From: Coleofasciculus sp. B1-GNL1-01
Lineage (GTDB): Bacteria > Cyanobacteriota > Cyanobacteriia > Cyanobacteriales > Coleofasciculaceae
Assembly (NCBI GenBank): GCA_040220235.1
Contig: JAVJTO010000141.1
Direction: 5' to 3' (one strand)
DNA length: 26,210 nucleotides
The notes beneath the pieces were generated by a model. It made no database searches. It saw only the letters and a list, made by a program, of their open reading frames with translations, and was not told the origin of the DNA. The translations under genes were made by a program, and so were the position numbers. Positions 1 to 20,711 of the stretch are shown here, piece by piece. Position 1 is the first letter of the stretch. Each line of letters starts with the position of its first letter.

Positions 1-140
1 GGGGAAGCAATGATACATTTTCCCTGATAATGGTGCAAAGGTATGAAAGGGTTTTATCCTTTTTCTTTGAAGATGAGCCAATGTTCATGCTACTCAAAGC
101 TTTGGTAGCCAAGGGTTTCGGTCTTGTGCAGCAAGCCCTA
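1..140. mobile_element. Right part of a MITE-like element, cut by the window start; homologous to 5923-6065
   Basis: Ends in TTGTGCAGCAAGCCCTA (124-140), identical to 6049-6065. The preceding ~120 bp are co-linear with 5923-6048, sharing blocks GGGG-AGCAA-G-TACATTT, TATGAA, TTTTCT-TGAA and CTCAAAG. Confidence 0.65.
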
Positions 141-164
141 ACGATGATTAAGCCAGCCAACGCT

Positions 165-737
165 TTAGGGCTGAGGCGACTCATTCCCTTGACTTGCTCC
201 CACAGCAATCAAATGCTGGCGCACCAGATACTCCAACTGATACAGATACGCCACCGTCACCAACCGATACAAGGTGGGTAAGGTAAATAAATCCCTCAAT
301 TCATCCCACCACGCCAACGTATCATACAAAGAACCCATCTGAGGGAGGAAGATAATCTGAATCATTTGACTCACCACAAATGCCAGTGTAATCGCCATCC
401 ACCCATAGAAGCCTTCCCACCAACTCATCAGTGTGGGAACAATTCCCGTCACTTCAGCCATTTCCTGCGATCGCGTATTTGGGAAAAATCGGTCAAGAAC
501 GATGTGCAGCCAGTGATGAGTAACGGCGATAATTACTATTGGTGAGAGTAACGTAACAAAATATAACAAGAATCGCCACTTCGGGGCAATCACCATCAGA
601 GAATCACCCAGTTGTAAGATTGAGAGGATAATCCGGATAATCACCGAAATTCCCCGAAAGAGCAGAATTAAAAGAACGGCACTTAGCCATGCAGTGGGGT
701 AAGGAATAAAAGGGGGCCAATTTCTCATATTTTCCAT
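165..737 (-). CDS. Hypothetical integral membrane protein, last gene of the dynamin cassette (start could be ATG 728)
   Basis: 190-aa ORF with 3-4 hydrophobic segments and a PTLMSWWEGFYGW motif; co-oriented downstream of the BDLP pair; contains HIP1 at 467-474. Confidence 0.8.
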   Translation of the reverse strand: MENMRNWPPFIPYPTAWLSAVLLILLFRGISVIIRIILSILQLGDSLMVIAPKWRFLLYFVTLLSPIVIIAVTHHWLHIVLDRFFPNTRSQEMAEVTGIVPTLMSWWEGFYGWMAITLAFVVSQMIQIIFLPQMGSLYDTLAWWDELRDLFTLPTLYRLVTVAYLYQLEYLVRQHLIAVGASQGNESPQP

Positions 738-770
738 TGGTGATTGGTGATTGGTGATTTGTCATTGGTT
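736..770. repeat. 7-bp short tandem repeat (STRR-type, ATTGGTG x3 plus 2 degenerate units)
   Basis: attggtg attggtg attggtg atttgtc attggtt, abutting the start codon of 165..737. Confidence 0.85.
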
Positions 771-814
771 AGGGAACCGAGGGATAGGGCAATTTTTGGG
801 TTACTTAAAACTTA

Positions 815-878
815 GTCGGGGCGGGTTTAGTCACTTAGGGGTGCGGTAAAAAACGATAGTAGTGAAACCCGCCCCTAC
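815..878 (-). repeat. GTAG-REP doublet / REPIN-like 64-bp element, copy 1
   Basis: Minus strand reads GTAGGGGCGGGTTTCACT...GACTAAACCCGCCCCGAC, with inverted arms GGGGCGGGTTT / AAACCCGCCCC. Confidence 0.85.
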
Positions 879-915
879 ACACCTTCCTCGAAGGTTGTGA
901 ACAATATTTCATTCT

Positions 916-2994
916 TCAACTCGCTTCTACCAACAAAGTCTGATACGCCGCCTCAATCCGTTCCACTTCCGATGACACATCTGTCTCTAATTTCTTCAAC
1001 CGCTCTAATTCCGTCCCTTGATTAATCTCATGGGACTCTTTTTGAGCGATTAAATTATCCAACTCTGACTGGCGAGCATTAATATCATCATTCATCCGTT
1101 CCGTCACTTCTCGCTCATAAACATCAAAGCATTCTTTCACCGCATCGTGAATCGGTTGCCATTGTTCTCGTGCAACTTGAGGCAAATATTTCACCAACTC
1201 TTTCTTCGCCGCTTTCACCAACTCTTTCCGCGCTTGATCCGCTTGCACCACCCCAACGCCTAAACCAAGTAATCCAAGTCCTACGGGTCCTAAAACCGTT
1301 CCAGATACCGCTGTAATTATTGCCCCAACACCCATGACAGTAATAAAATTAAGGGCGATATTTTTCCAATCAAACCCGGCTCCCGCCATAGCCACCCCAG
1401 CAATATTGCCCCTGGCTAATGAAAAGAGTCCCGCCGCCCATTTTGCCCAAGCGGGAGCCTTATCGTCTGGGGTTGTTCCAATTACTGGAGATATACGTTG
1501 TCCGGTTAATTTTTCGGTAATTTTATCTGTAACTTGGGTATAGGATGCGCCGTAATTAGCGGCACTTTTCGATAACTGCAAAAACGCACTATCCATCTCT
1601 TTTTCAGCCATCAAACTCCAAGCGGATAATTTATCATTCACATACCGCTCAAATGCCTGTTGCAATCCAGCTTCAAAGGCTTCGCGTCTCCCTTTGTTCA
1701 AAAAATCCATAAATCGCAAATCGGGCTGATACTGCATGAAATCAGCTTCAAACGTATTTCCCAAATTTAAAGTGTATGTGCGGAAGGAATCAGCCACCGC
1801 CTTTGCCTTACTATCCCGTACCGATTTGATTTCATCTTGGAACTGCTGACAGATGTCATTCAGTTTCTTGAATTCGGGTTCTACGGAATTAATCCGTTCT
1901 TTTAACTCCTGAACATCCTGTTCCAGCAACGGAATTCGCCGTTCAATCGCTTCCCGAACATGACTATACCCTTGACGCGCCAAGGTTCTGGCTTGGCGAA
2001 ATTCAGCCACGGCGCGTTCATTGGTTAAGAATGTACTTAATGCGCCCAGAAACTCTGGAAATCCGGTTCCTTCCAGAGAGGCTTGTGGCTGCTTGACTCG
2101 TAACCGCAGCGCTTTAATCGCGGAAATCTCAAATACTCGTTCATCATAAATATCATGCCCATCAACTTGACAGTAATCGGCTAAGTTAGCTCGAAATACA
2201 CGCCGCACTTTATCTTCCGATTCTTCTAATTCTTCGATATCATCCGGATCAATCAAACTTTCGCGAATCTGATCCCAAGCATTAATTAAAAAGAAAACTG
2301 ATAATCCTCGATTCTTAATGTAATTTTCTAAATAACGGCGTTCAGCCAAGGTACAAGGTTGAGTTGCCCGCAGTACAAATAAAATTGCATGGCAATTATT
2401 GATATATCCCAGAGATAACTCGTTCCGGGCTTCAGTATCATTAAGTCCAGGGCTATCGACAATTTCTATACCTTTTTGTAATAGCGGTAAGGGATAGTCC
2501 ACGACAGCATAATCAACATTGGGGAATGCCTGTTTCTTCTGTTGTTCCAGTTGTTTGGCTTCGGCGGGGTCAATCGTGTAGCGGCGCTTAAAACTTTTAA
2601 AGTCAATATCTTCGGGTGGTGTGCCATCGTTAAAATGAACGGTGACTTTTTTTTCAGATCCGTACCGCAACACGGTTAATAAGGCGGTACAGGGATTCAC
2701 ATCGGAGGGTAATAAGTTCTCGCCAATCAAGGCATTCAGAAACGTACTTTTGCCCCGTTTCATATCCCCCAACACCAGTAATCTGAATACACCTTGTTGT
2801 AAATTTTTACTGGCTCTGCTTAAATCATCAATATCCCGTTCCAACCCCAAACCGCCAGAGGTATCCTTGCCCATGGTTTCCCCTTGTTCCAGGGTTTGGG
2901 CGATTTCACCCAGGCTGGTGGCGACTTGCGATCGCACTCTGGCAACTCGCTCTAAATTATTCAGGAAACTGTCTGTTTCTATTTTGTAACTCAT
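916..2994 (-). CDS. Bacterial dynamin-like protein (BDLP family GTPase), paralog A
   Basis: G1 GDMKRGKS, G2 NPCT, G3 DSPG, G4 NAWD, long helical stalk and hydrophobic paddle (NFITVMGVGAIITAVSGTVLGPVGLGLLGLGVG). 692 aa; closely resembles Nostoc punctiforme BDLP as I recall it. Confidence 0.95.
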   Translation of the reverse strand: MSYKIETDSFLNNLERVARVRSQVATSLGEIAQTLEQGETMGKDTSGGLGLERDIDDLSRASKNLQQGVFRLLVLGDMKRGKSTFLNALIGENLLPSDVNPCTALLTVLRYGSEKKVTVHFNDGTPPEDIDFKSFKRRYTIDPAEAKQLEQQKKQAFPNVDYAVVDYPLPLLQKGIEIVDSPGLNDTEARNELSLGYINNCHAILFVLRATQPCTLAERRYLENYIKNRGLSVFFLINAWDQIRESLIDPDDIEELEESEDKVRRVFRANLADYCQVDGHDIYDERVFEISAIKALRLRVKQPQASLEGTGFPEFLGALSTFLTNERAVAEFRQARTLARQGYSHVREAIERRIPLLEQDVQELKERINSVEPEFKKLNDICQQFQDEIKSVRDSKAKAVADSFRTYTLNLGNTFEADFMQYQPDLRFMDFLNKGRREAFEAGLQQAFERYVNDKLSAWSLMAEKEMDSAFLQLSKSAANYGASYTQVTDKITEKLTGQRISPVIGTTPDDKAPAWAKWAAGLFSLARGNIAGVAMAGAGFDWKNIALNFITVMGVGAIITAVSGTVLGPVGLGLLGLGVGVVQADQARKELVKAAKKELVKYLPQVAREQWQPIHDAVKECFDVYEREVTERMNDDINARQSELDNLIAQKESHEINQGTELERLKKLETDVSSEVERIEAAYQTLLVEAS

Positions 2995-3038
2995 TGTTTG
3001 TTTATCCCGTAACTATATTCATTCCAAGTTGTTTAATA

Positions 3039-3102
3039 GAAGGGCGGGTTTAGTCAAGTTATCGATTTTTTGCAAAACGTTATCGGTAAAACCCGCCCCT
3101 AC
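3039..3102 (-). repeat. GTAG-REP doublet / REPIN-like 64-bp element, copy 2
   Basis: Minus strand GTAGGGGCGGGTTTTACCGATAACGTT...TAACTTGACTAAACCCGCCCTTC; internal sequence shared with copy 3. Confidence 0.85.
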
Positions 3103-3142
3103 AACCGATAAAGACAATACCCATCCGACAAATCCTTTCCGT

Positions 3143-5224
3143 TTAACCGGGTAACGATAATAACTCCTCATACACAGATTCAACCTGCCGACATTCCGCT
3201 AAAATATCAGCATCTAAACCTCTCAACCGTTTCAACTCAGTTTGCCGATTAATCTCACGAGATTCTTTTTGCTCCAGCAAGTTATCTAACTCGGCTTGAC
3301 GGGATTTAATATCATCATTAATCCGCTGAATTACTTCCTTTTCGTAACTATCAAAAGAATCTTTCACCGCTTGACGAATCGGTTCTTGTTGTTCCTGGCT
3401 GAGTTGCGGTAAATATTTAACAAACTCTTTTTTCGTCGCTTTAATCACTTCTTGGCGGGCTTGTTCGGCTTGCAGTGCGCCCACACCCAAACCCATCAAC
3501 GCTAATCCAATGGGATTCCAAAACGTTAACCCCGTAAAAATTAATAAAAAGCTGCTAATCCCAATTACCGCTAACCAATTAACCAGGATATTTTGCCAAG
3601 TAAACCCAGCAGCAGCTAACGCCACACCCGCCACATTTCCCGATGCTAAGGAGAAAAACCCCATCGCCCATTTTGCCCAAGTGGGTGACTCTTCCCCTGC
3701 ATCAACCCGAACGCCTGACGGTATGGTTTGTCCAATTAACTTCTCAGTCATGGAATCAACAATCTGATTATAGGTTGCACCGTAGTTAGCGGCACTTTGG
3801 GCAAGTTGGGAAAACCCCTCTTGTAAATACTCCTCCGCCGTGCGTTCCCACTCAGCTAATTTATCCTGAATATACTGTTCAAACGCTTGCTTTAATGCCG
3901 CATTAAACGCCTCCCGTCTCTCCGTTTGCAAGAACTCCAGAAAGTCAATTGTCGGCTGATAGCGTAAGAAATCAGATTCAAATGTCTTTTCTAAATTCAG
4001 CACATAAGTGCGAAACGAATCCGCCACCGCTTTAACTTTTGTATCCCGCATCGTCCGAATTTCATCCTGGAATTGATCGCGGATTTGGGTCAATTGATCA
4101 AACTCCGGTTCAACCCCCTGAATCCGTTGTTTTAATTCCTGAATATCTTGGTCGAGTAAGGGAATTCGCCGTTCAATCGCTTCGTGAGTGCGGCTATAAA
4201 CTTGACGCGCCAACGTTCTCGCTTGGCGTAATTGTGCCACGGCGCGTTCTTGGGTCAAAAAGGTATTCAGCGCCCCTAAAAATGCTGGTAATCCTGTTCC
4301 TTCTAGGGAAGCTTCTGAATCTTTTACCCGCCGCCGCAAGGCTTCCAGAGAGGAAATCTCAAACACTCGCTCATCATAGCGATTCTGTCCATCTTTTTGA
4401 CAGTAATCAGTTAGATAGGTTTGGAATACCGTGCGTAACCGATTTTGTGCTTCTTCAAGTTCATCGGGATCATCCGGATCAATCAATCCTTTACCGATTT
4501 CATCCCAAGCGTTAATTAGAAAGAAAACTGTTAATCCGCGCCCTTTAATGTAATTTTCTAAATAGCGGCGTTCTTCCAGGGTACAAGGCTGCATCGCCCT
4601 GAATACAAACAAAATTGCGTGACAGTTATGGATATAGTTGAGTGATAATTCATTCCGGGATTCGGTATCGTTAAGCCCCGGACTATCAACAATTTCAATC
4701 CCTTTTTCTAAGAGGGGTAAGGGGTATTCGACAACGGCATAGTCAACGTCGGGAAATGCCGAACTTTTCTCAGCCTCAAGGCGTTTGGCTTCGGCAGGAT
4801 CGATGGTATAGTTTTGCTTAAAACTGGCAAAATCGAGGGATTCTGGCGGTTTATCCCCTTTAAAGTAAACCGTGACTTTTTTTTGAGTTCCGTAGCGCAA
4901 AACTGTCAGCAGCGCTGTACAAGGATTCACATCGGCTGGCAATAGGTTCTCACCAATTAAGGCATTGAGGAACGTACTCTTACCTCGTTTCAAGTCTCCC
5001 AATACCAGCAGCCGAAATAAACCCTTCTGCAAATTGTCACTGGCAATCTGGATATCTTCGCTTTCCCGTTCTAGACTCAATTTCCCGGAGGTTTCTTCAG
5101 CGTCTAATTCGGCTTGATTTAGCCGTTTGGCAATTTGACTCAGATGCGTCGCCGCTTGATGGCGCACTCTCACCACTCGCTCCAAATCCCTGAGGAAGCT
5201 GGTATTATCCACGGTATAGCTCAT
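3143..5224 (-). CDS. Bacterial dynamin-like protein (BDLP family GTPase), paralog B
   Basis: G1 GDLKRGKS, NPCT, DSPG, NAWD. 693 aa, co-linear with 916..2994 over the full length, with a more aromatic paddle (NWLAVIGISSFLLIFTGLTFWNPIG). Confidence 0.95.
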   Translation of the reverse strand: MSYTVDNTSFLRDLERVVRVRHQAATHLSQIAKRLNQAELDAEETSGKLSLERESEDIQIASDNLQKGLFRLLVLGDLKRGKSTFLNALIGENLLPADVNPCTALLTVLRYGTQKKVTVYFKGDKPPESLDFASFKQNYTIDPAEAKRLEAEKSSAFPDVDYAVVEYPLPLLEKGIEIVDSPGLNDTESRNELSLNYIHNCHAILFVFRAMQPCTLEERRYLENYIKGRGLTVFFLINAWDEIGKGLIDPDDPDELEEAQNRLRTVFQTYLTDYCQKDGQNRYDERVFEISSLEALRRRVKDSEASLEGTGLPAFLGALNTFLTQERAVAQLRQARTLARQVYSRTHEAIERRIPLLDQDIQELKQRIQGVEPEFDQLTQIRDQFQDEIRTMRDTKVKAVADSFRTYVLNLEKTFESDFLRYQPTIDFLEFLQTERREAFNAALKQAFEQYIQDKLAEWERTAEEYLQEGFSQLAQSAANYGATYNQIVDSMTEKLIGQTIPSGVRVDAGEESPTWAKWAMGFFSLASGNVAGVALAAAGFTWQNILVNWLAVIGISSFLLIFTGLTFWNPIGLALMGLGVGALQAEQARQEVIKATKKEFVKYLPQLSQEQQEPIRQAVKDSFDSYEKEVIQRINDDIKSRQAELDNLLEQKESREINRQTELKRLRGLDADILAECRQVESVYEELLSLPG

Positions 5225-5273
5225 AGTTTTTTCTGATTCACGCTTTGGGTGAGATGAAGGCAGGTTTGAGTGT

Positions 5274-5338
5274 GTAGGGGCGGGTTTGACCGATAACGTT
5301 CAGGAGAAAACCTCTAACTTAACTAAACCCGCCCCGAT
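5274..5338 (+). repeat. GTAG-REP doublet / REPIN-like 65-bp element, copy 3
   Basis: GTAGGGGCGGGTTTGACCGATAACGTT...TAACTTAACTAAACCCGCCCCGAT. Confidence 0.85.
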
Positions 5339-5355
5339 CAAATGCAAGAGTTAAA

Positions 5356-5404
5356 TTCCCTGTTCCCTGTTCCCTGTTCCCTGTTCCCTGTTCCCTGTTC
5401 CCTA
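5356..5404. repeat. 7-bp tandem repeat (TTCCCTG)6 + TTCCCTA
   Basis: Directly visible; the last unit supplies the TAG stop of 5402..5722. Confidence 0.95.
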
Positions 5405-5722
5405 AGACTTCTTATCGCCTTCGAGGAAAATCTTATAGCCAATAAAGCCAATAACGCCGATAATCATAATCGTCGCGATCGCAGCACTCACCCGTACAAC
5501 CAGAACAGCCGCCACGACAAAGGCTAAGAACTTACCGAACATCACTAGCTTTCTCCCCCACCGTTGCAGCTTTCCTTCTGGTTGCTCATGCTTAACGGTT
5601 TGGTAGAGAGGAGGTTGATTAATTTCCGCTTCGAGTTCGCGTAGTCGGAGTTCTCGCTCTCGTTGGATCAGGTCGTGTTCCCGGCGCTGAAGCTCCCGGT
5701 CTTGATTATTGGGAGAAGTCAT
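5402..5722 (-). CDS. Small membrane protein: N-terminal charged coiled coil plus C-terminal hydrophobic hairpin (possibly DUF3040-like)
   Basis: RELQRREHDLIQRERELRLRELEAEIN followed by ~40 hydrophobic residues; AGGA upstream of the ATG; co-oriented directly upstream of the BDLP pair. Confidence 0.85.
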   Translation of the reverse strand: MTSPNNQDRELQRREHDLIQRERELRLRELEAEINQPPLYQTVKHEQPEGKLQRWGRKLVMFGKFLAFVVAAVLVVRVSAAIATIMIIGVIGFIGYKIFLEGDKKS

Positions 5723-5869
5723 GTCAGTTCATCCTAGTCAGAAATCGATCACAATAGGTTATGAAAAGGTTAAAAGACTCTAGCAATTTAGCTGACTCGT
5801 ATTCACCATAAATTTTCTCTTACTTTAACCTTAGAGCCTCAGCATCTGCTAGATCTGGTTAAAAAACTT

Positions 5870-6065
5870 TAGGGCAAACCTCCACTCCGGGAGCTGGGGA
5901 AGCTGGGGGAGCTGGGGAAGCTGGGGGAGCAAGGGTACATTTGTCTTGAGCAAGGTGATGCCATACTTATGAAGGATGCTACCCGATTTTCTTGAATCAA
6001 ACCCTCTGTCAATAAAGCTCAAAGTATTCATTGTTAATGGTTTTGGCTTTGTGCAGCAAGCCCTA
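5870..6065. mobile_element. MITE-like element containing a 9-bp tandem array
   Basis: Degenerate left end TAGGGC (5870); (GGGGRAGCT)n array at 5889-5930; ~140-bp segment homologous to 1-140; right end TTGTGCAGCAAGCCCTA. Confidence 0.6.
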
Positions 6066-6074
6066 CTTAGATCA

Positions 6075-6497
6075 CTATTCTTGTTGGGTTGGCTGATGTT
6101 CAGCATCAACCAGGGTTTCTTTAGATTGATCGAGCATACCCTTACCAGAAGACGTGCGCTTTTTGGCATGAGTTGATGATTCTACAGGACGGATGTCGTC
6201 ATGCAGATGAATCTGAATTTTCGGTCCCGAACTAGCTAGACGGATAATCATCCCATCCACAACCGCCGTCTGGGTAATGCGTTTTCCATCGATATAGGTT
6301 CCGTTAGCACCTAAGCTGATAATTCGCCAACCTGAACCATTCCGCCGAAGTTCAACATGGTGACGTGAAACGACGGCGCTGTATAAAATGACATCATTAT
6401 CCGTAGACCGCCCAATCCGAATCACCGATTCCGATTTAAACGGCCAACTTTGAACAGGTACAGACTGGAGAGGATGCAGCAGGGTCAGAGTAATCAC
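6075..6497 (-). CDS. FHA domain-containing protein (probable GTG start at 6497; the ORF track extends to 6602)
   Basis: FHA motifs IRIGRSTDND, VVSRHH, GANGTYIDG. (M)ITLTLLHPLQSVPVQSW is a typical N-terminus of this cyanobacterial family. Confidence 0.9.
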   Translation of the reverse strand: MITLTLLHPLQSVPVQSWPFKSESVIRIGRSTDNDVILYSAVVSRHHVELRRNGSGWRIISLGANGTYIDGKRITQTAVVDGMIIRLASSGPKIQIHLHDDIRPVESSTHAKKRTSSGKGMLDQSKETLVDAEHQPTQQE

Positions 6498-6729
6498 CGG
6501 TGTTACATCATTCAAAAACGTGGGTCCTTTCGACTGACTGAATACTTCTAGAGTGTCCCATGAGTCTAGAACAGGTTGTCCTTGAGGGATACCATCGATC
6601 AACCCTAACTATTTGTCAATGGTCAGGAGTCAACACGGTAAAAGATTTTTCCGGAAACATTATAGAATTTACCTGTAAATCAGGCTTCTATGATTAACCC
6701 CCCTCAGCTTCAGTACATAGGCAAGCGAC

Positions 6730-7509
6730 TCAGGACACTTGGAACAAAAACGTTACCATGTCCCCTTTGCCGAGGCTAATGCGATCGCCTTTGCGTAAGC
6801 GATGGCGATCCCCTTTCGGTAACGGGGTATGGTTGATGTATGTTCCATTGGCGCTGCCCACATCTTCAAGATAGTAGGTATCTCCCTCGACGCGAATATC
6901 TGCATGAACTCGCGAAACAATCTCAGAATTCGGAAAGCCAGACACATCAATATCCGGGGGAATCTGATCGTTGGGTTTACCGATATGAATCACACTGAGA
7001 TGGGAGGGGAGTTCCATTTTGGTTTGGGTTTGTAGATGCAGCAGATAAACGGACTGCACCTGTAACTGTGTGACACTACCTGGCGTTGGTGTGGCTACAG
7101 GGGGCGGAGGGGGTGCTGTTTCCGGCTCCGGTGGGGCTGGCTTTTCTTCTTCTTCTGTTGTCGTTCCGGATTGCCCAACCTGGGTAACGGGTAGCTCAGA
7201 AGGGGGATCGGGTTGCGGGTCAGGGATGGGTGATGGGGAACTCATTGAAAGAGGTTCGGGTTCAATTAGAGGGTCAGGGGGGTCTAAATCGGGTACATCG
7301 GGAACCGACACTGGAGCTGGTGTATCTGGGCTTCCCGTTGAGCCACTGGCTTTCAGGTTAAAACCACATTGACCGCAGAAGCTAGCGTCTGTTTGAACTG
7401 TTGTACCACAGTTGGGACAACTCATGCTTGCCGGTAAAGGTGTATAGCAGGCTTCGCATTGAGTCGCACCATCTGGATTTTGGTGATTGCAGTTAGGGCA
7501 AACAATCAT
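6730..7509 (-). CDS. fraH: FraH-like protein: double zinc ribbon, Pro-rich linker, FHA domain
   Basis: CPNC..CEAC..CPNC..CGQC at the N-terminus, Pro-rich middle, FHA (VSRVHA, GSANGTYIN). Lies downstream of pgl, as in Anabaena PCC 7120. Confidence 0.85.
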   Translation of the reverse strand: MIVCPNCNHQNPDGATQCEACYTPLPASMSCPNCGTTVQTDASFCGQCGFNLKASGSTGSPDTPAPVSVPDVPDLDPPDPLIEPEPLSMSSPSPIPDPQPDPPSELPVTQVGQSGTTTEEEEKPAPPEPETAPPPPPVATPTPGSVTQLQVQSVYLLHLQTQTKMELPSHLSVIHIGKPNDQIPPDIDVSGFPNSEIVSRVHADIRVEGDTYYLEDVGSANGTYINHTPLPKGDRHRLRKGDRISLGKGDMVTFLFQVS

Positions 7510-7559
7510 AAGCTATTCAATATTCACGCATTCAAAATTACCAACAAAAGCGGTTTCAC

Positions 7560-7587
7560 GTAGAGACGTTGCATGCAACGTCTCGAC
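7560..7587 (+). repeat. GTAG-type REP-like palindrome
   Basis: GTAGAGACGTTGCATGCAACGTCTCGAC; perfect 22-bp palindrome at 7563-7584. Confidence 0.85.
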
Positions 7588-7715
7588 TGAGGACAAAACC
7601 GCCGAAATCCTTCGAGTCAGCATGAGCCTTCCTCCTTCATCAAAACACAGTTAACCGTTCTACCTTAATAACTTGTTACATCAGGCTCACGGATTCTCTG
7701 TCGTAGAAATGAGCA

Positions 7716-8438
7716 TTAGTCTTTCACCGCTTGACCAGCTTGCTGATCTAAAAGCCACCACAATTCGCCTTGAGGCTGAATGAATCGCGCCGGATAGGTC
7801 AAAGGATCAGCCTCAGCCGCGAAGATTTGAGCCAACGCTGGTTGCTTGCCCGCCCCCGCCACCAGAAACATTACACAATGGGCTTGGTTAATTAACGGTA
7901 CAGTAAAAGTAATCCGAGGTTGACCGTCTTTATTGCCCACAGTAATCCGGCGATCGCAAACCTGTAGCGCTTGGGTATGAGGAAATAAAGATGCCGTATG
8001 CGCGTCGTCACCAATACCCAACAAGATCAGATCAAATTGGGGAAACTCGTCGGCGGCTACACCAAAGAACTCCCCCAGTTGAGTATCATGCTTCGAGGCG
8101 TCTGCTTCCGGAGACTCTCCGTCTGTGGGAATGGGGTGAATATTCGTGGCTGGGATATCAACGTGATCCAACCAAGCCTGACGCGCCATCGCTTGATTGC
8201 TATCCGGGTGATCGGCTGGAACATAGCGTTCATCACCCCAAAAGATATGCAGTTTATCCCAGGGTAGATTCTGGCTAGCTAGGGCTTGATAGAGGGGCTT
8301 GGGTGTACCGCCCCCCGCTAAAGCCAGCGTACAGCGCCCTGAGCGTTGGATTGCCTCCTGTATCTTCGTGAGGACAACATCACGCGATCGCTCAATCAGC
8401 GCGGCTTTATCAGGCAAAACTTCGACAATTTTCTTCAT
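7716..8438 (-). CDS. pgl: 6-phosphogluconolactonase (probable start ATG 8438, 240 aa)
   Basis: ALAGGGTP, FWGDERYVP, DLILLGIGDDAHTASLFP, RITFT motifs; GGAGGA RBS upstream of MKKIVEV. Confidence 0.95.
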   Translation of the reverse strand: MKKIVEVLPDKAALIERSRDVVLTKIQEAIQRSGRCTLALAGGGTPKPLYQALASQNLPWDKLHIFWGDERYVPADHPDSNQAMARQAWLDHVDIPATNIHPIPTDGESPEADASKHDTQLGEFFGVAADEFPQFDLILLGIGDDAHTASLFPHTQALQVCDRRITVGNKDGQPRITFTVPLINQAHCVMFLVAGAGKQPALAQIFAAEADPLTYPARFIQPQGELWWLLDQQAGQAVKD

Positions 8439-8928
8439 CAATCTGTGATCCTCCGGCTCAAAAGGTAAGTTGGTCTCGCCGACCATTTCGTTGGATAATT
8501 GCAGTAGACCCCTAGGGTAATCATTCAAATATCCATGAGTTAATATGGGCAAGTCATACATGAACCCTAATTGTCCCATACCGTATGGGGTACACTCGGT
8601 TCTAGGGTAAAAAATTCCACTACCCCACTGTGTAGACGGCGGGGATTGCTAAGGACTTGCCTTAGTAACGCAAGTGTTGAATAGACCATAAGCTGCTAGC
8701 TGATATGTACTTCCAGATACTTCCCTAGTCTGGATGATTATCTACCAACCCTTAGGTCTGGGTTCGTCTAAAAGGTGGAGATTTTGCTAGTAGTGGTATC
8801 GTTGGGACTAAAACAGGTTTTGCAGGTTCCTGGGTTTCTCACCATTAAAAACCTGCTTGTAAACCATAGTGGGCGCGATTTCGGACCCAACGTAAGACGA
8901 TGGGGTATCCGTCGCGGAATCAGGTTCA

Positions 8929-9687
8929 ATGAAAAGTAGTACTATGTATTCTTCGTTCGCGGGTTTAGCACTTAAGATAGTCGGATTGATCATGATCCTA
9001 TCGTCCCTGTTGGATTATCTGATCCTGATTATTCCCTCTCCTGGTGTTAGCCCCCTTGAGAATGAATGGCAGCTTAATTTAACCACCCAGCTCGTTGATC
9101 GGGGTGTTATCCCGATGGTGGGAATTGCCTTTTTGGTAGCAGGATATTGGATCAGCAATAACAGTGGTGGCTCATTACCTGAGCAAAAATCCTCAATCAC
9201 CGACTTGAGATTCTGGGCATTTTTACTCTCGAGCCTATTGGGTTTACTCTTCCTGTTGCTTGTCCCCTTGCACTTTAACAATGTTCGCATCCAAAGTAAT
9301 CAAGCGATAGAACAGATTACTCAGCAAGCCCAGCAAGCTGAAACCCAACTGGAAACGCAAGTTCAGCAAATTGATACTCTGCTTCAAGATCCACAACAGC
9401 TAGAACGACTAGACCAAGCCATTGAAAGCGGTCAAGCTCAAGGAGAGCAACTCCAGCGACTCCAGGCACTCCGAGAACAATTGCAGGCGCTCAGAACAGA
9501 TCCCGAAGCGATCACTCAAAGAACTGAGCAAGCTCAGACTCAAATCCGCAGTCGTAGACAAGAACTTGAGCAACGCGCCCGAACTGAGGCATTAAAAAGA
9601 GGTATCCGCATCGGTTTAAGCAGCCTACTGTTAGCCATTGGCTATAGCATCATTGGCTGGATGGGATTGCGGAACTTGAGCAGTTAA
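8929..9687 (+). CDS. hpsJ: HpsJ-family membrane protein (hormogonium polysaccharide / motility associated)
   Basis: Three N-terminal TM segments with WQL...TQLVDRGVIPMVG, a Gln-rich coiled coil and a C-terminal TM. Architecture recognised from memory as HpsJ family. Confidence 0.7.
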   Translation: MKSSTMYSSFAGLALKIVGLIMILSSLLDYLILIIPSPGVSPLENEWQLNLTTQLVDRGVIPMVGIAFLVAGYWISNNSGGSLPEQKSSITDLRFWAFLLSSLLGLLFLLLVPLHFNNVRIQSNQAIEQITQQAQQAETQLETQVQQIDTLLQDPQQLERLDQAIESGQAQGEQLQRLQALREQLQALRTDPEAITQRTEQAQTQIRSRRQELEQRARTEALKRGIRIGLSSLLLAIGYSIIGWMGLRNLSS

Positions 9688-9970
9688 TCTGCAAGTCATT
9701 GCTATGCGAGCAACAGGCAAAAAGGTTTGATAACCGTCTCTAAATTGTCAGTTGATAGAGATTTACGATTCAATAGAAGATACACACAAGCGTCCTAATC
9801 ACCCATTCCCAGATAACAAATAACCTCTATTCGAGCCAGTTGCCAACTGCTGTAGGTAATCCCCAGTTCTGCTTTTATGTGCCATCGGTTACGATTGGCA
9901 TTGAGGCGGATTGGGGTTCTCAATTTCAGCAAACCGCTTTAGCTAGACTCATTTTTTTACAACCTTTGAC

Positions 9971-10825
9971 ATGTTCTCGATTTATATCCTTACCTACAAC
10001 GAAGAACGAGATATTGAAGCGTGCATCAACTCAGCGCGGCTCTCGGATGACATCATTGTGGTGGATTCGTGTAGTAGCGATCGCACGGTAGAATTTGCCC
10101 AACGCTATCCGGTGCGAGTTGTATCTCATGCCTTTGAAAGTCATGGGCGTCAGCGGACTTGGATGCTGGAAAACCTCCCCACTAAGTATGAATGGGCTTA
10201 CATCCTAGAAGCCGATGAACGGATGACTCCAGCCCTATTTGCTGAATGCCTAGAGGCGATAAAAGACAACCAGTACGTGGGATATTATGTCGCCGAACGG
10301 GTGATGTTCATGAATCGATGGATTCGTCACTGTACTCAGTATCCCCGTTACCAACTTCGTTTACTGCGAAAAGGTCTAGTCTGGTTTACCGATTATGGTC
10401 ATACGGAACGGGAAGTCTGTGATGGATCTACAGGGTTCTTGAAAGAAACCTACCCCCACTATACCTGTAGTAAGGGATTTAGCCGTTGGATTGAAAAACA
10501 CAACCGTTACTCCACCGATGAAGCCCGGGAAACCTTACGCCAGCTTGAACAAGGCACTGTCAACTGGGGGAATTTGCTGCTGGGGCGATCGGAAGTGGAA
10601 CGGCGTCATGCCCTTAAAGATCTGTCGTTACGCTTGCCCTTTCGTCCATTACTCCGCTTTCTCTATATGTACATTTTCCTCGCAGGCTTCCTGGATGGAC
10701 GCGCTGGCTTTACTTGGTGTACCTTACAGGCATTTTATGAATATCTAATTACCCTCAAGGTTTGGGAACTTAAGGAGGAACAACTGCCCACCATTGAGGC
10801 AACCGATTCCCAACTCTCTTTCTAA
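9971..10825 (+). CDS. Glycosyltransferase family 2 (possibly the HpsK orthologue, given its position after hpsJ)
   Basis: SIYILTYNEE, IIVVDSCSSDRT and EADE motifs of the GT-A fold. Confidence 0.9.
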   Translation: MFSIYILTYNEERDIEACINSARLSDDIIVVDSCSSDRTVEFAQRYPVRVVSHAFESHGRQRTWMLENLPTKYEWAYILEADERMTPALFAECLEAIKDNQYVGYYVAERVMFMNRWIRHCTQYPRYQLRLLRKGLVWFTDYGHTEREVCDGSTGFLKETYPHYTCSKGFSRWIEKHNRYSTDEARETLRQLEQGTVNWGNLLLGRSEVERRHALKDLSLRLPFRPLLRFLYMYIFLAGFLDGRAGFTWCTLQAFYEYLITLKVWELKEEQLPTIEATDSQLSF

Positions 10826-19517: not shown

Positions 19518-20711
19518 ATGCTCGATCTCACGAAACTCGCGAAACAAATCCCTGGAATTAGCCAGCATCTGAAAGGGGAGGCGCTGGCAAGTCGCCAGCG
19601 CTGGGAACTGGCGCAAAAGCTGATGCTGGAGGCTAATACCCGACAAAGTGAGTTAATTCAATCCCAACAGCAATGGCGCGATCGCATAATCTTCACGGCG
19701 GCTGTTCCGGTTGAATCCCTGGATACCAGCCTTGATCTGGATTCCCCGCCCGAAAGCCACACGATTTTCGCCACCGATGGGTCTCAAATTTCTCCCTCCC
19801 ATCACGAAATCGCCTATTGTTATTTAATTAACGTGGGTCGGGTGATGCTGCACTATGGACAAAGTTTACACCCACTCTTGGATAGCTTACCCGAAGTCTT
19901 TTACCGACCCGAAGATTTATACATATCTCGCCAATGGGGGATTCGTACCGAAGAATGGATGGGATATTGTCGCACTGTGTCTGAGGTGTCGATATTGGCA
20001 GAAATGGCGTGTCGCTGGGTCAATCCGCCCGGTTCTCACTTTGATATTCCCAATCTGGCGATGGTGGATGGATCACTGATTTACTGGTTTCTGGAGTCCT
20101 TACCCACAGAAGCCCGCGATCGCATCCTACCCCCGATTCTAGCGGCTTGGGATCAGTTGCGATCGGTGAATGTACCACTGATGGGCTATTTGAGCGCATC
20201 TCGCAGCAACGAAGCCCTGCATTTTCTCCGCTTACAAGCCTGTCCTTATGACACCCCAAACTGTCTCAGCCATTGCGCCTCTGTTACCGATAAATTGCCT
20301 TGTCAGGTTGTTGAACCCTTACGTGATACGATGCTCTGGTCGAGTTTACTGCAACCCGGACAACGTAGTCCTTTATTTCGCAGTTCAGTGCGAATTTTAG
20401 ATCTATACGATCATCACCGGATTTACTTCTGCTATGTTCACGTTGGTACAGAAATTGCCCGCGTCGAGGTTCCAGAATGGGTAGCACAGGATACTATGTT
20501 ATTCAATCAAGCCCTAAGTTTAATGCTGGCACAGGTTTACAAAGGCTATGGCTATCCCATTGCTATAGCAGAAGCCCATAATCAGGCTGTCGTTCGAGGC
20601 GGCGATCGCGCCCGCTTTTTTACCCTATTAGAACAGCAGATGATTCGCGCTGGGTTACGAAATGTGGGAACATCCTACAAAGAAGCCCGTAAGCGTGGCA
20701 GTATTTCTTAA
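19518..20711 (+). CDS. nurA: NurA-domain nuclease
   Basis: ATDGS and MVDGSL acidic motifs, EIARVE, GYPIAIAEAH; typical cyanobacterial NurA-domain protein. Confidence 0.85.
   Translation: MLDLTKLAKQIPGISQHLKGEALASRQRWELAQKLMLEANTRQSELIQSQQQWRDRIIFTAAVPVESLDTSLDLDSPPESHTIFATDGSQISPSHHEIAYCYLINVGRVMLHYGQSLHPLLDSLPEVFYRPEDLYISRQWGIRTEEWMGYCRTVSEVSILAEMACRWVNPPGSHFDIPNLAMVDGSLIYWFLESLPTEARDRILPPILAAWDQLRSVNVPLMGYLSASRSNEALHFLRLQACPYDTPNCLSHCASVTDKLPCQVVEPLRDTMLWSSLLQPGQRSPLFRSSVRILDLYDHHRIYFCYVHVGTEIARVEVPEWVAQDTMLFNQALSLMLAQVYKGYGYPIAIAEAHNQAVVRGGDRARFFTLLEQQMIRAGLRNVGTSYKEARKRGSIS

Follow-up and report, generated by a model that had tools for sequence, protein, structure and literature searches.

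The window analysed here, a whole contig of 26,210 nucleotides (JAVJTO010000141.1; one 26-kb contig out of the 8.66-Mb genome of Coleofasciculus sp. B1-GNL1-01), carries seven consecutive genes on its minus strand, two of which encode bacterial dynamin-like proteins (BDLPs). On balance, this stretch is probably a pgl–fraH–FHA gene trio lying beside the first (5′) part of a known cyanobacterial BDLP1 operon, headed by a gene for a small putative membrane anchor that we call S106. The operon is a known kind in a family-specific variant, and S106 is a real, undescribed accessory gene of that operon type. The seven genes are two neighbouring clusters, not one system: a trio of widespread type with roles in sugar metabolism and signalling, and an operon for membrane-bending GTPases.

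An original prediction, made from the DNA alone, had treated the seven genes as a single candidate membrane-remodelling system. Its gene list was confirmed: seven consecutive minus-strand open reading frames (ORFs) were found at the expected coordinates, and family profiles confirmed the two dynamin-like proteins, the two FHA proteins and pgl. The ratio of non-synonymous to synonymous substitution (dN/dS, pairwise against two relatives) was 0.07–0.23 for every gene, and so none of them is dead; all seven are real and under purifying selection.

Both dynamins belong to one subfamily. BDLP1a, the downstream copy (916–2994, 692 aa), matches the Nostoc BDLP (PDB 2j68) over its full length (residues 4–689, 1084 bits), and BDLP1b, the upstream paralogue (3143–5224, 693 aa), is 64 % identical to BDLP1a. 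The two proteins score far above cut-off against PF00350 (114 and 110 bits) and PF21808 (625 and 585 bits), have intact G1–G4 motifs (at 76, 99, 180 and 238), and keep the hydrophobic paddle, with hydrophobic segments at about 544–585. Both are therefore BDLP1 (‘Tandem B’) paralogues. The ‘tandem dynamin pair’ of the original prediction thus holds as two adjacent dynamins, but they are not the usual dissimilar pair: no strongly dissimilar dynamin, as in the canonical Tandem B + Tandem A arrangement, is adjacent in the window. The canonical Tandem A partner of this genome (555 aa, 27 % identity, with no strongly hydrophobic segment and no J domain) is unlinked to the window dynamins, on contig C40. 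In a survey of 271 cyanobacterial genomes, 117 of which belong to one family without any match, Tandem A lay no more than 3 kb from BDLP1 in 33 of the 39 genomes that have BDLP1. The Tandem A partner and a J-domain gene, which complete the operon in other genomes, were missed by the original prediction. The displaced Tandem A gene (G000:C40, L096:9323–10990) stands alone, with no J-domain gene after it, and is flanked by ORFs that we take to be oxidoreductase-like and thioesterase-like.

The closest named relatives by BDLP sequence (93–96 % identity) are Coleofasciculus records. Duplication of BDLP1 is already on record: for C. chthonoplastes, Jilly et al. 2018 (PMC5827413) give, in their supplement, two genes of the Tandem B type and one of the Tandem A type at a distance. 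In a separate scan of 78 loci, some of whose records probably overlap with the surveyed genomes, tandem BDLP1 copies were present in 25. A quick tree of 55 proteins, with Shimodaira–Hasegawa-like approximate likelihood ratio test (SH-aLRT) support only and no clade test, placed all 18 upstream copies in one 23-row group (SH-aLRT 96) together with five divergent non-tandem copies; it held no downstream copy. As this group spans Coleofasciculaceae, Microcoleaceae, Aerosakkonemataceae and a further family (f5), the duplication probably predates Coleofasciculaceae, the family of this genome. The largest difference between the two BDLP1 sets is in the paddle (55 % identity between sets, 67–71 % within), and the paddle of BDLP1b is the more aromatic. 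In a close relative (L011:5622–12076; also L090), BDLP1 is present as three copies in tandem, and the additional copy groups with the upstream paralogue. One genome (G270, L128:3440–8999) carries a run of three dynamin-like genes that are more distant (about 30 % identity to BDLP1) and are not accompanied by S106.

The gene upstream of the dynamins, S106 (5402–5722, 106 aa), is a true member of the BDLP1 operon and its conserved first gene. Among the 271 genomes, S106 was found in 39, BDLP1 in 39 and both in 34 (per genus, S106 and BDLP1 occur in 19 and 22 of 124); in all 34, S106 lies directly upstream of BDLP1, within 236 bp. The separate scan gave the same arrangement in 60 of the 71 loci with enough flank. 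The five genomes with S106 and no BDLP1 mostly hold deletion relics: two keep a dynamin fragment directly behind S106 (G101, G166), one has two stops inside S106 (G057), and in another (G229) the S106 match is a remote paralogue. In the fifth (G237), both dynamins are gone and S106 is fused in frame to a DnaJ domain (L122:4884–5690), as a deletion running through both dynamins would give. This genome is one of several with apparent operon deletions in genus g24, along with G101 and G166.

Because the first S106 profile was built from dynamin-linked genes, the search was repeated with a broader profile of 132 sequences. Across the 271 genomes, it returned the same 38 strong matches (E≤1.9e-23) and added a weak paralogue family (E≥1.8e-12), for a total of 79 genomes; in this check for circularity, the strong set was thus the same as with the first profile. 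The paralogue family is homologous to S106 (hhalign probability 98.8 %) and consists of widespread, unnamed hairpin membrane proteins of about 110 aa; this genome has a copy (L135:4279–4566; G000:C17, about 85.3–85.6 kb), and others are at L136–L146. Across 13 paralogue loci, an RDD-pentapeptide-repeat gene is adjacent in 8 and a conserved 155-aa gene in 10, and no dynamin is among the shared neighbours. Three of the loci lie near genes that we presume, from their translations, to be petB/petD. The family is unlinked to dynamins, and S106 therefore appears to be a branch of an older group of hairpin proteins that became linked to dynamins. S106 itself has a charged N-terminal helix followed by one long hydrophobic stretch (about 56–102), which we read as a membrane hairpin; its likely role is that of a membrane anchor.

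Profile searches placed S106 in no family above cut-off. Its match to DUF3040 is below cut-off (19.9 bits against 24.7); matches to DUF3040 occur in 28 of the 132 family members (E≤0.01) and in 11–25 % of the members of two Atlas clusters. One remote paralogue scored 16.7 bits against PF22571 (cut-off 27), searches of the genome with the DUF3040 and LiaI profiles do not pick out S106, and the best match to a solved structure had an E value of 0.017, so that no related structure was identified. No paper describing a small gene upstream of BDLP1 was found in a search that did not extend to subscription papers and bioRxiv supplements, which could mention S106; there is no mention of it in the passages and supplement of PMC5827413 available.

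Several observations weigh against an operon headed by an S106 anchor. S106 is missing from 5 of the 39 BDLP1 genomes and from the upstream position in 11 of the 71 loci; the loci without it include intact BDLP1–Tandem A pairs, one of them among those five genomes; it was lost between the FHA gene and BDLP1 in G284; and it is intact but separated from BDLP1 in three genomes of genus g132. S106 passes no LiaI/PspC profile and has no match to PF22571. The persistence of the FHA–S106–BDLP order across 11 genera could also be explained by selection, and the genomes are related, so that all of the linkage counts overstate independence.

Alternatively, S106 may share the expression of the dynamins and yet work independently of them; it could, for instance, bend or mark the membrane itself, as its paralogues may. 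The widespread homologous family without dynamin linkage would fit this, as would the intact S106 genes away from BDLP1 in genus g132, G101 and G166. The strong S106 subfamily, however, hardly occurs outside BDLP1 operons and what is left of them, and we consider independent action unlikely. Direct binding of S106 to BDLP1, with S106 as the membrane receptor of the dynamin, we would put at slightly less than an even chance.

The original prediction had proposed that both uncharacterised membrane proteins of the block are partners of the dynamins. For S106, the linkage stands (34 of 39 genomes, 60 of 71 loci); for M190, the 190-aa protein encoded at 165–737, it does not. M190 is a helical membrane protein of an unnamed cyanobacterial family, with no Pfam or NCBIfam match. 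It occurs in 20 of the 271 genomes, 12 of which also have BDLP1, and is adjacent to BDLP1 in just one of the 12, the present genome. Within Coleofasciculaceae (51 genomes surveyed, the unpublished G288 being excluded), M190 adjoins BDLP1 in 16 of the 22 genomes with both, from nine genera, but is absent from 20 of the 42 BDLP1 genomes, including four of nine in this genus, where the deletion is clean. Two genomes in which no BDLP1 was found (G108 and G290) have M190 as the next gene after the FHA gene. M190 is thus an optional BDLP1 neighbour at the level of the family and, at best, an optional passenger or minor accessory.

Many distant homologues of M190 are domains of longer proteins; those at L101, L102, L117, L110 and L116 are in proteins of 260–520 aa with no Pfam domain above cut-off, and Atlas neighbours at 0.85–0.86 are archaeal, which is a lead only. 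The predicted structure of M190 is a helical bundle with a predicted local distance difference test (pLDDT) score of 48 in a 7-row model and 79 in a 101-row model. Foldseek gave no match to the model at E≤0.001, its best VIA-align match was of the RnfA/NqrE type (Z 5.4, root mean square deviation 4.6, 122 aligned), within the background for helical bundles, and all Atlas matches of M190 outside its own cluster were below 0.9.

On the other side of S106 are the three remaining genes: pgl, for 6-phosphogluconolactonase (7716–8438, 240 aa, passing TIGR01198); fraH (6730–7509, 259 aa); and a gene for a stand-alone FHA-domain protein (6075–6602, 175 aa from a TTG, the start codon being uncertain). 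Orthologues of the last align only from about residue 23–36 of the ORF, so the true start is probably later. Profile searches found an FHA domain in this product, and a double zinc ribbon plus an FHA domain, joined by a proline-rich linker, in that of fraH. The N-terminal zinc ribbons, the C-terminal FHA domain and the position after pgl identify the latter as a FraH orthologue; the forward primer published for fraH encodes the same first eight residues.

The linkage of these genes to the dynamins is supported only within one family. A search of 50 genomes covered 38 of the 39 with BDLP1 plus 12 more; in 46 of 48 genomes, pgl adjoins fraH. Outside Coleofasciculaceae, fraH was found in 37 of 38 BDLP1 genomes and within 10 kb of BDLP1 in none of the 37; the two genes are 0.1–4.2 Mb apart on one contig in eight genomes and on different contigs in 29, and in the sampled members of a heterocyst-forming family (f7) they are never within 10 kb. 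Inside Coleofasciculaceae, where fraH linkage was scored through the neighbouring FHA gene, the FHA gene and BDLP1 are within 5 kb on one contig in 20 of 41 genomes, from 11 genera. Flanks were compared for 16 of the 21 genomes in which they seemed unlinked: in five (G002, G007, G012, G298 and G304) the linkage appears to run across contig ends, one (G308) is unresolved, and the rest are breaks. The join is clearly broken in at least seven genera of the family. At the breaks, S106 stays with BDLP1 in eight genomes from six genera (G289, G297, G303, G306, G309, G311, G312 and G318, the layouts of G306 and G318 being read from matching loci of the separate scan) and with the FHA gene in three genomes of one genus (G293, G295 and G296). 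The join of the trio to the dynamin block is thus as old as the family and has been repeatedly broken. The fullest layout, pgl–fraH–FHA–S106–BDLP1b–BDLP1a–M190–Tandem A–small J protein, is found in G300 and G305; in the present genome, Tandem A has split off, and a search for the small J protein gave nothing that matched over its full length.

Could the trio and the dynamin operon nevertheless form a unit limited to this family, co-regulated, with FraH and the FHA protein reading phospho-threonine on the dynamins or S106 to steer remodelling? The join is kept in those 20 genomes of 11 genera, with the five more across contig ends; all of the genes lie on the same strand, and the gaps between them hold nothing like a terminator on the minus strand; and in Anabaena, according to PMC9035410, FraH affects membrane organisation in heterocysts, as well as filament integrity, and binds a CurT-family protein. 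Set against this are the zero count in 37 genomes outside the family, the occurrence of the join in 8 of 63 loci, almost all of which belong to this family, the clear breaks in at least seven of its genera, the fact that fraH follows pgl almost everywhere whether or not dynamins are present, and the lack of any kinase or phosphatase gene in the block. We regard such a unit as very unlikely. A single phospho-regulated system of seven genes, as originally envisaged, is unsupported, and its fraH/FHA link finds no support beyond the family. The FHA genes are probably bystanders to the dynamin operon, inherited as neighbours since the ancestor of the family. The Anabaena FraH partners reported there are Alr4359, the CurT-family Alr4119, SepJ, Alr0548 and Alr0547, with a kinase among the partners; the word ‘dynamin’ is absent from the available text of that paper and its seven supplements, and we found no paper reporting a FraH–dynamin link among sources other than subscription papers and bioRxiv supplements.

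Between S106 and the FHA gene lies a dispersed repeat (5870–6065, no strand assigned) that resembles a miniature inverted-repeat transposable element (MITE). The genome holds 27 matches to it at E≤1e-8, which have terminal inverted repeats in common; the left end of this copy is degraded. The repeat was correctly recognised in the original prediction, but the suggestion that it marks a recent juxtaposition of fraH was wrong: the same gene order occurs in 11 genera, and the full MITE in just 2 of 11 FHA–S106 spacers compared, those of this genome and G003, three others having only MITE matches of 27 nt or less. Since the gene order is the same without it, the MITE was inserted after the FHA–S106 join was already in place. 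A diverged second copy of the family (1–141) forms the end of the contig and is identical to three other contigs.

The trio-beside-operon reading suggests a model for the dynamin block. S106 would insert into the membrane as a hairpin, and its charged helix would remain cytoplasmic and bind BDLP1 there, much as LiaI is described as anchoring and recruiting LiaH. GTP-bound BDLP1a and BDLP1b would then insert their paddles and polymerise; the Nostoc BDLP reportedly polymerises on liposomes with GTP and tubulates membranes in vitro. Tandem A, encoded elsewhere in the genome, would join the assembly through BDLP1, and the paralogues and Tandem A may co-assemble to fuse or reseal stressed membrane. 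Heterotypic pairing reportedly activates dynamin-like proteins (DLPs) in Campylobacter. The FHA genes would have no part beyond being inherited neighbours, and M190 would be an optional passenger or minor accessory. An extended version, in which an S106 receptor nucleates a mixed BDLP1a/BDLP1b/Tandem A polymer and FraH/FHA adds phospho-control through a shared transcript in mat-forming Coleofasciculaceae, would be a long shot. Further background comes from PMC6104087, PMC5333519, PMC3141674 and PMC7766704.

A further reading takes the dynamin block for an anti-phage module in the manner of B. subtilis DynA or of the Leo-type Dynamins system, and is very unlikely: it draws on partial PADLOC matches to LeoA/LeoBC models (best E 3e-20, models without cut-off), a patchy and repeatedly deleted operon and, from PMC9950537, the delay of phage lysis by DynA, but the PADLOC matches are remote, the block has a fixed chromosomal position among housekeeping genes across the family, the BDLP1 tree is mostly vertical, and the window has no defence or mobility genes apart from dispersed repeats. 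This reading concerns what the same machine might do and leaves its architecture unchanged.

Evidence on transcription was sought in the window and in public data. The intergenic gaps of the seven-gene block measure 127–352 bp, and all except one contain dispersed repeats. Scans for promoters and terminators gave about as many sites as chance would (11 where 13.3 were expected and 11 where 10.0 were expected), and Rfam gave no match in window positions 1–10000. Four public RNA-labelled runs were rejected as evidence of co-transcription: they are available as contigs only, and their flat depth across a divergent promoter, with records of up to 78 kb, means that they behave like DNA and are uninformative on transcripts. 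The strain in these runs has zero coverage over the M190 gene.

Other features of the window were also recorded. A short dispersed repeat (70–200 genome matches) has copies in three gaps of the dynamin block (815–880, 3042–3103 and 5273–5334), two of them inverted around BDLP1b, and a 7-bp tandem repeat lies at 5356–5404. Divergent from pgl, in an arrangement conserved across the family, is hpsJ (8929–9687; NF050014, above cut-off). Further along is a gene with a NurA domain (PF09376) and, after it, a 203-aa ORF that matches nothing in Pfam (19518–20711). Other neighbours in the window have translations that we presume to be those of fabH and plsX.

If the model is right, S106 would be the first dedicated membrane receptor found for a bacterial dynamin in the literature as searched. 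The Nostoc-type BDLP1 has so far been studied as a lone purified protein, and S106, directly upstream in about 85 % of operons, is an obvious missing component, one that bears on how dynamins of bacteria reach the membrane they act on. With a second paralogue retained and its paddle different, the pair lends itself to a natural comparison of lipid specificity.

The closest known systems include the Nostoc punctiforme BDLP1 (PDB 2j68/2j69/2w6d) and the Tandem B/A pair, with which the window shares full-length dynamins, G motifs and paddle, and the genome a Tandem A gene. It differs from the pair, as described in PMC5827413, in having two old BDLP1 paralogues and an unlinked Tandem A, and no J-domain fusion or full-length small J gene was found here. 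Like the heterotypic DLP pairs (Campylobacter Cj-DLP1/2, PDB 5owv; Bacillus DynA; Streptomyces DynAB), the window has neighbouring dynamins that probably co-assemble on membranes, whereas the Campylobacter partners share 24 % identity and those of the window 64 %, with a paddle in both and the dissimilar partner on another contig. The Bacillus LiaI–LiaH system also places the gene of a small hydrophobic protein just before that of a membrane-remodelling protein; it serves as a working analogy only, as S106 has no profile match above cut-off, and LiaH is PspA/ESCRT-III-like and not a dynamin. Finally, the window FraH has the zinc ribbon and FHA layout of Anabaena FraH (alr1603) and the same position after pgl, but it lies near BDLP1, whereas the reported Anabaena partners are not dynamins.

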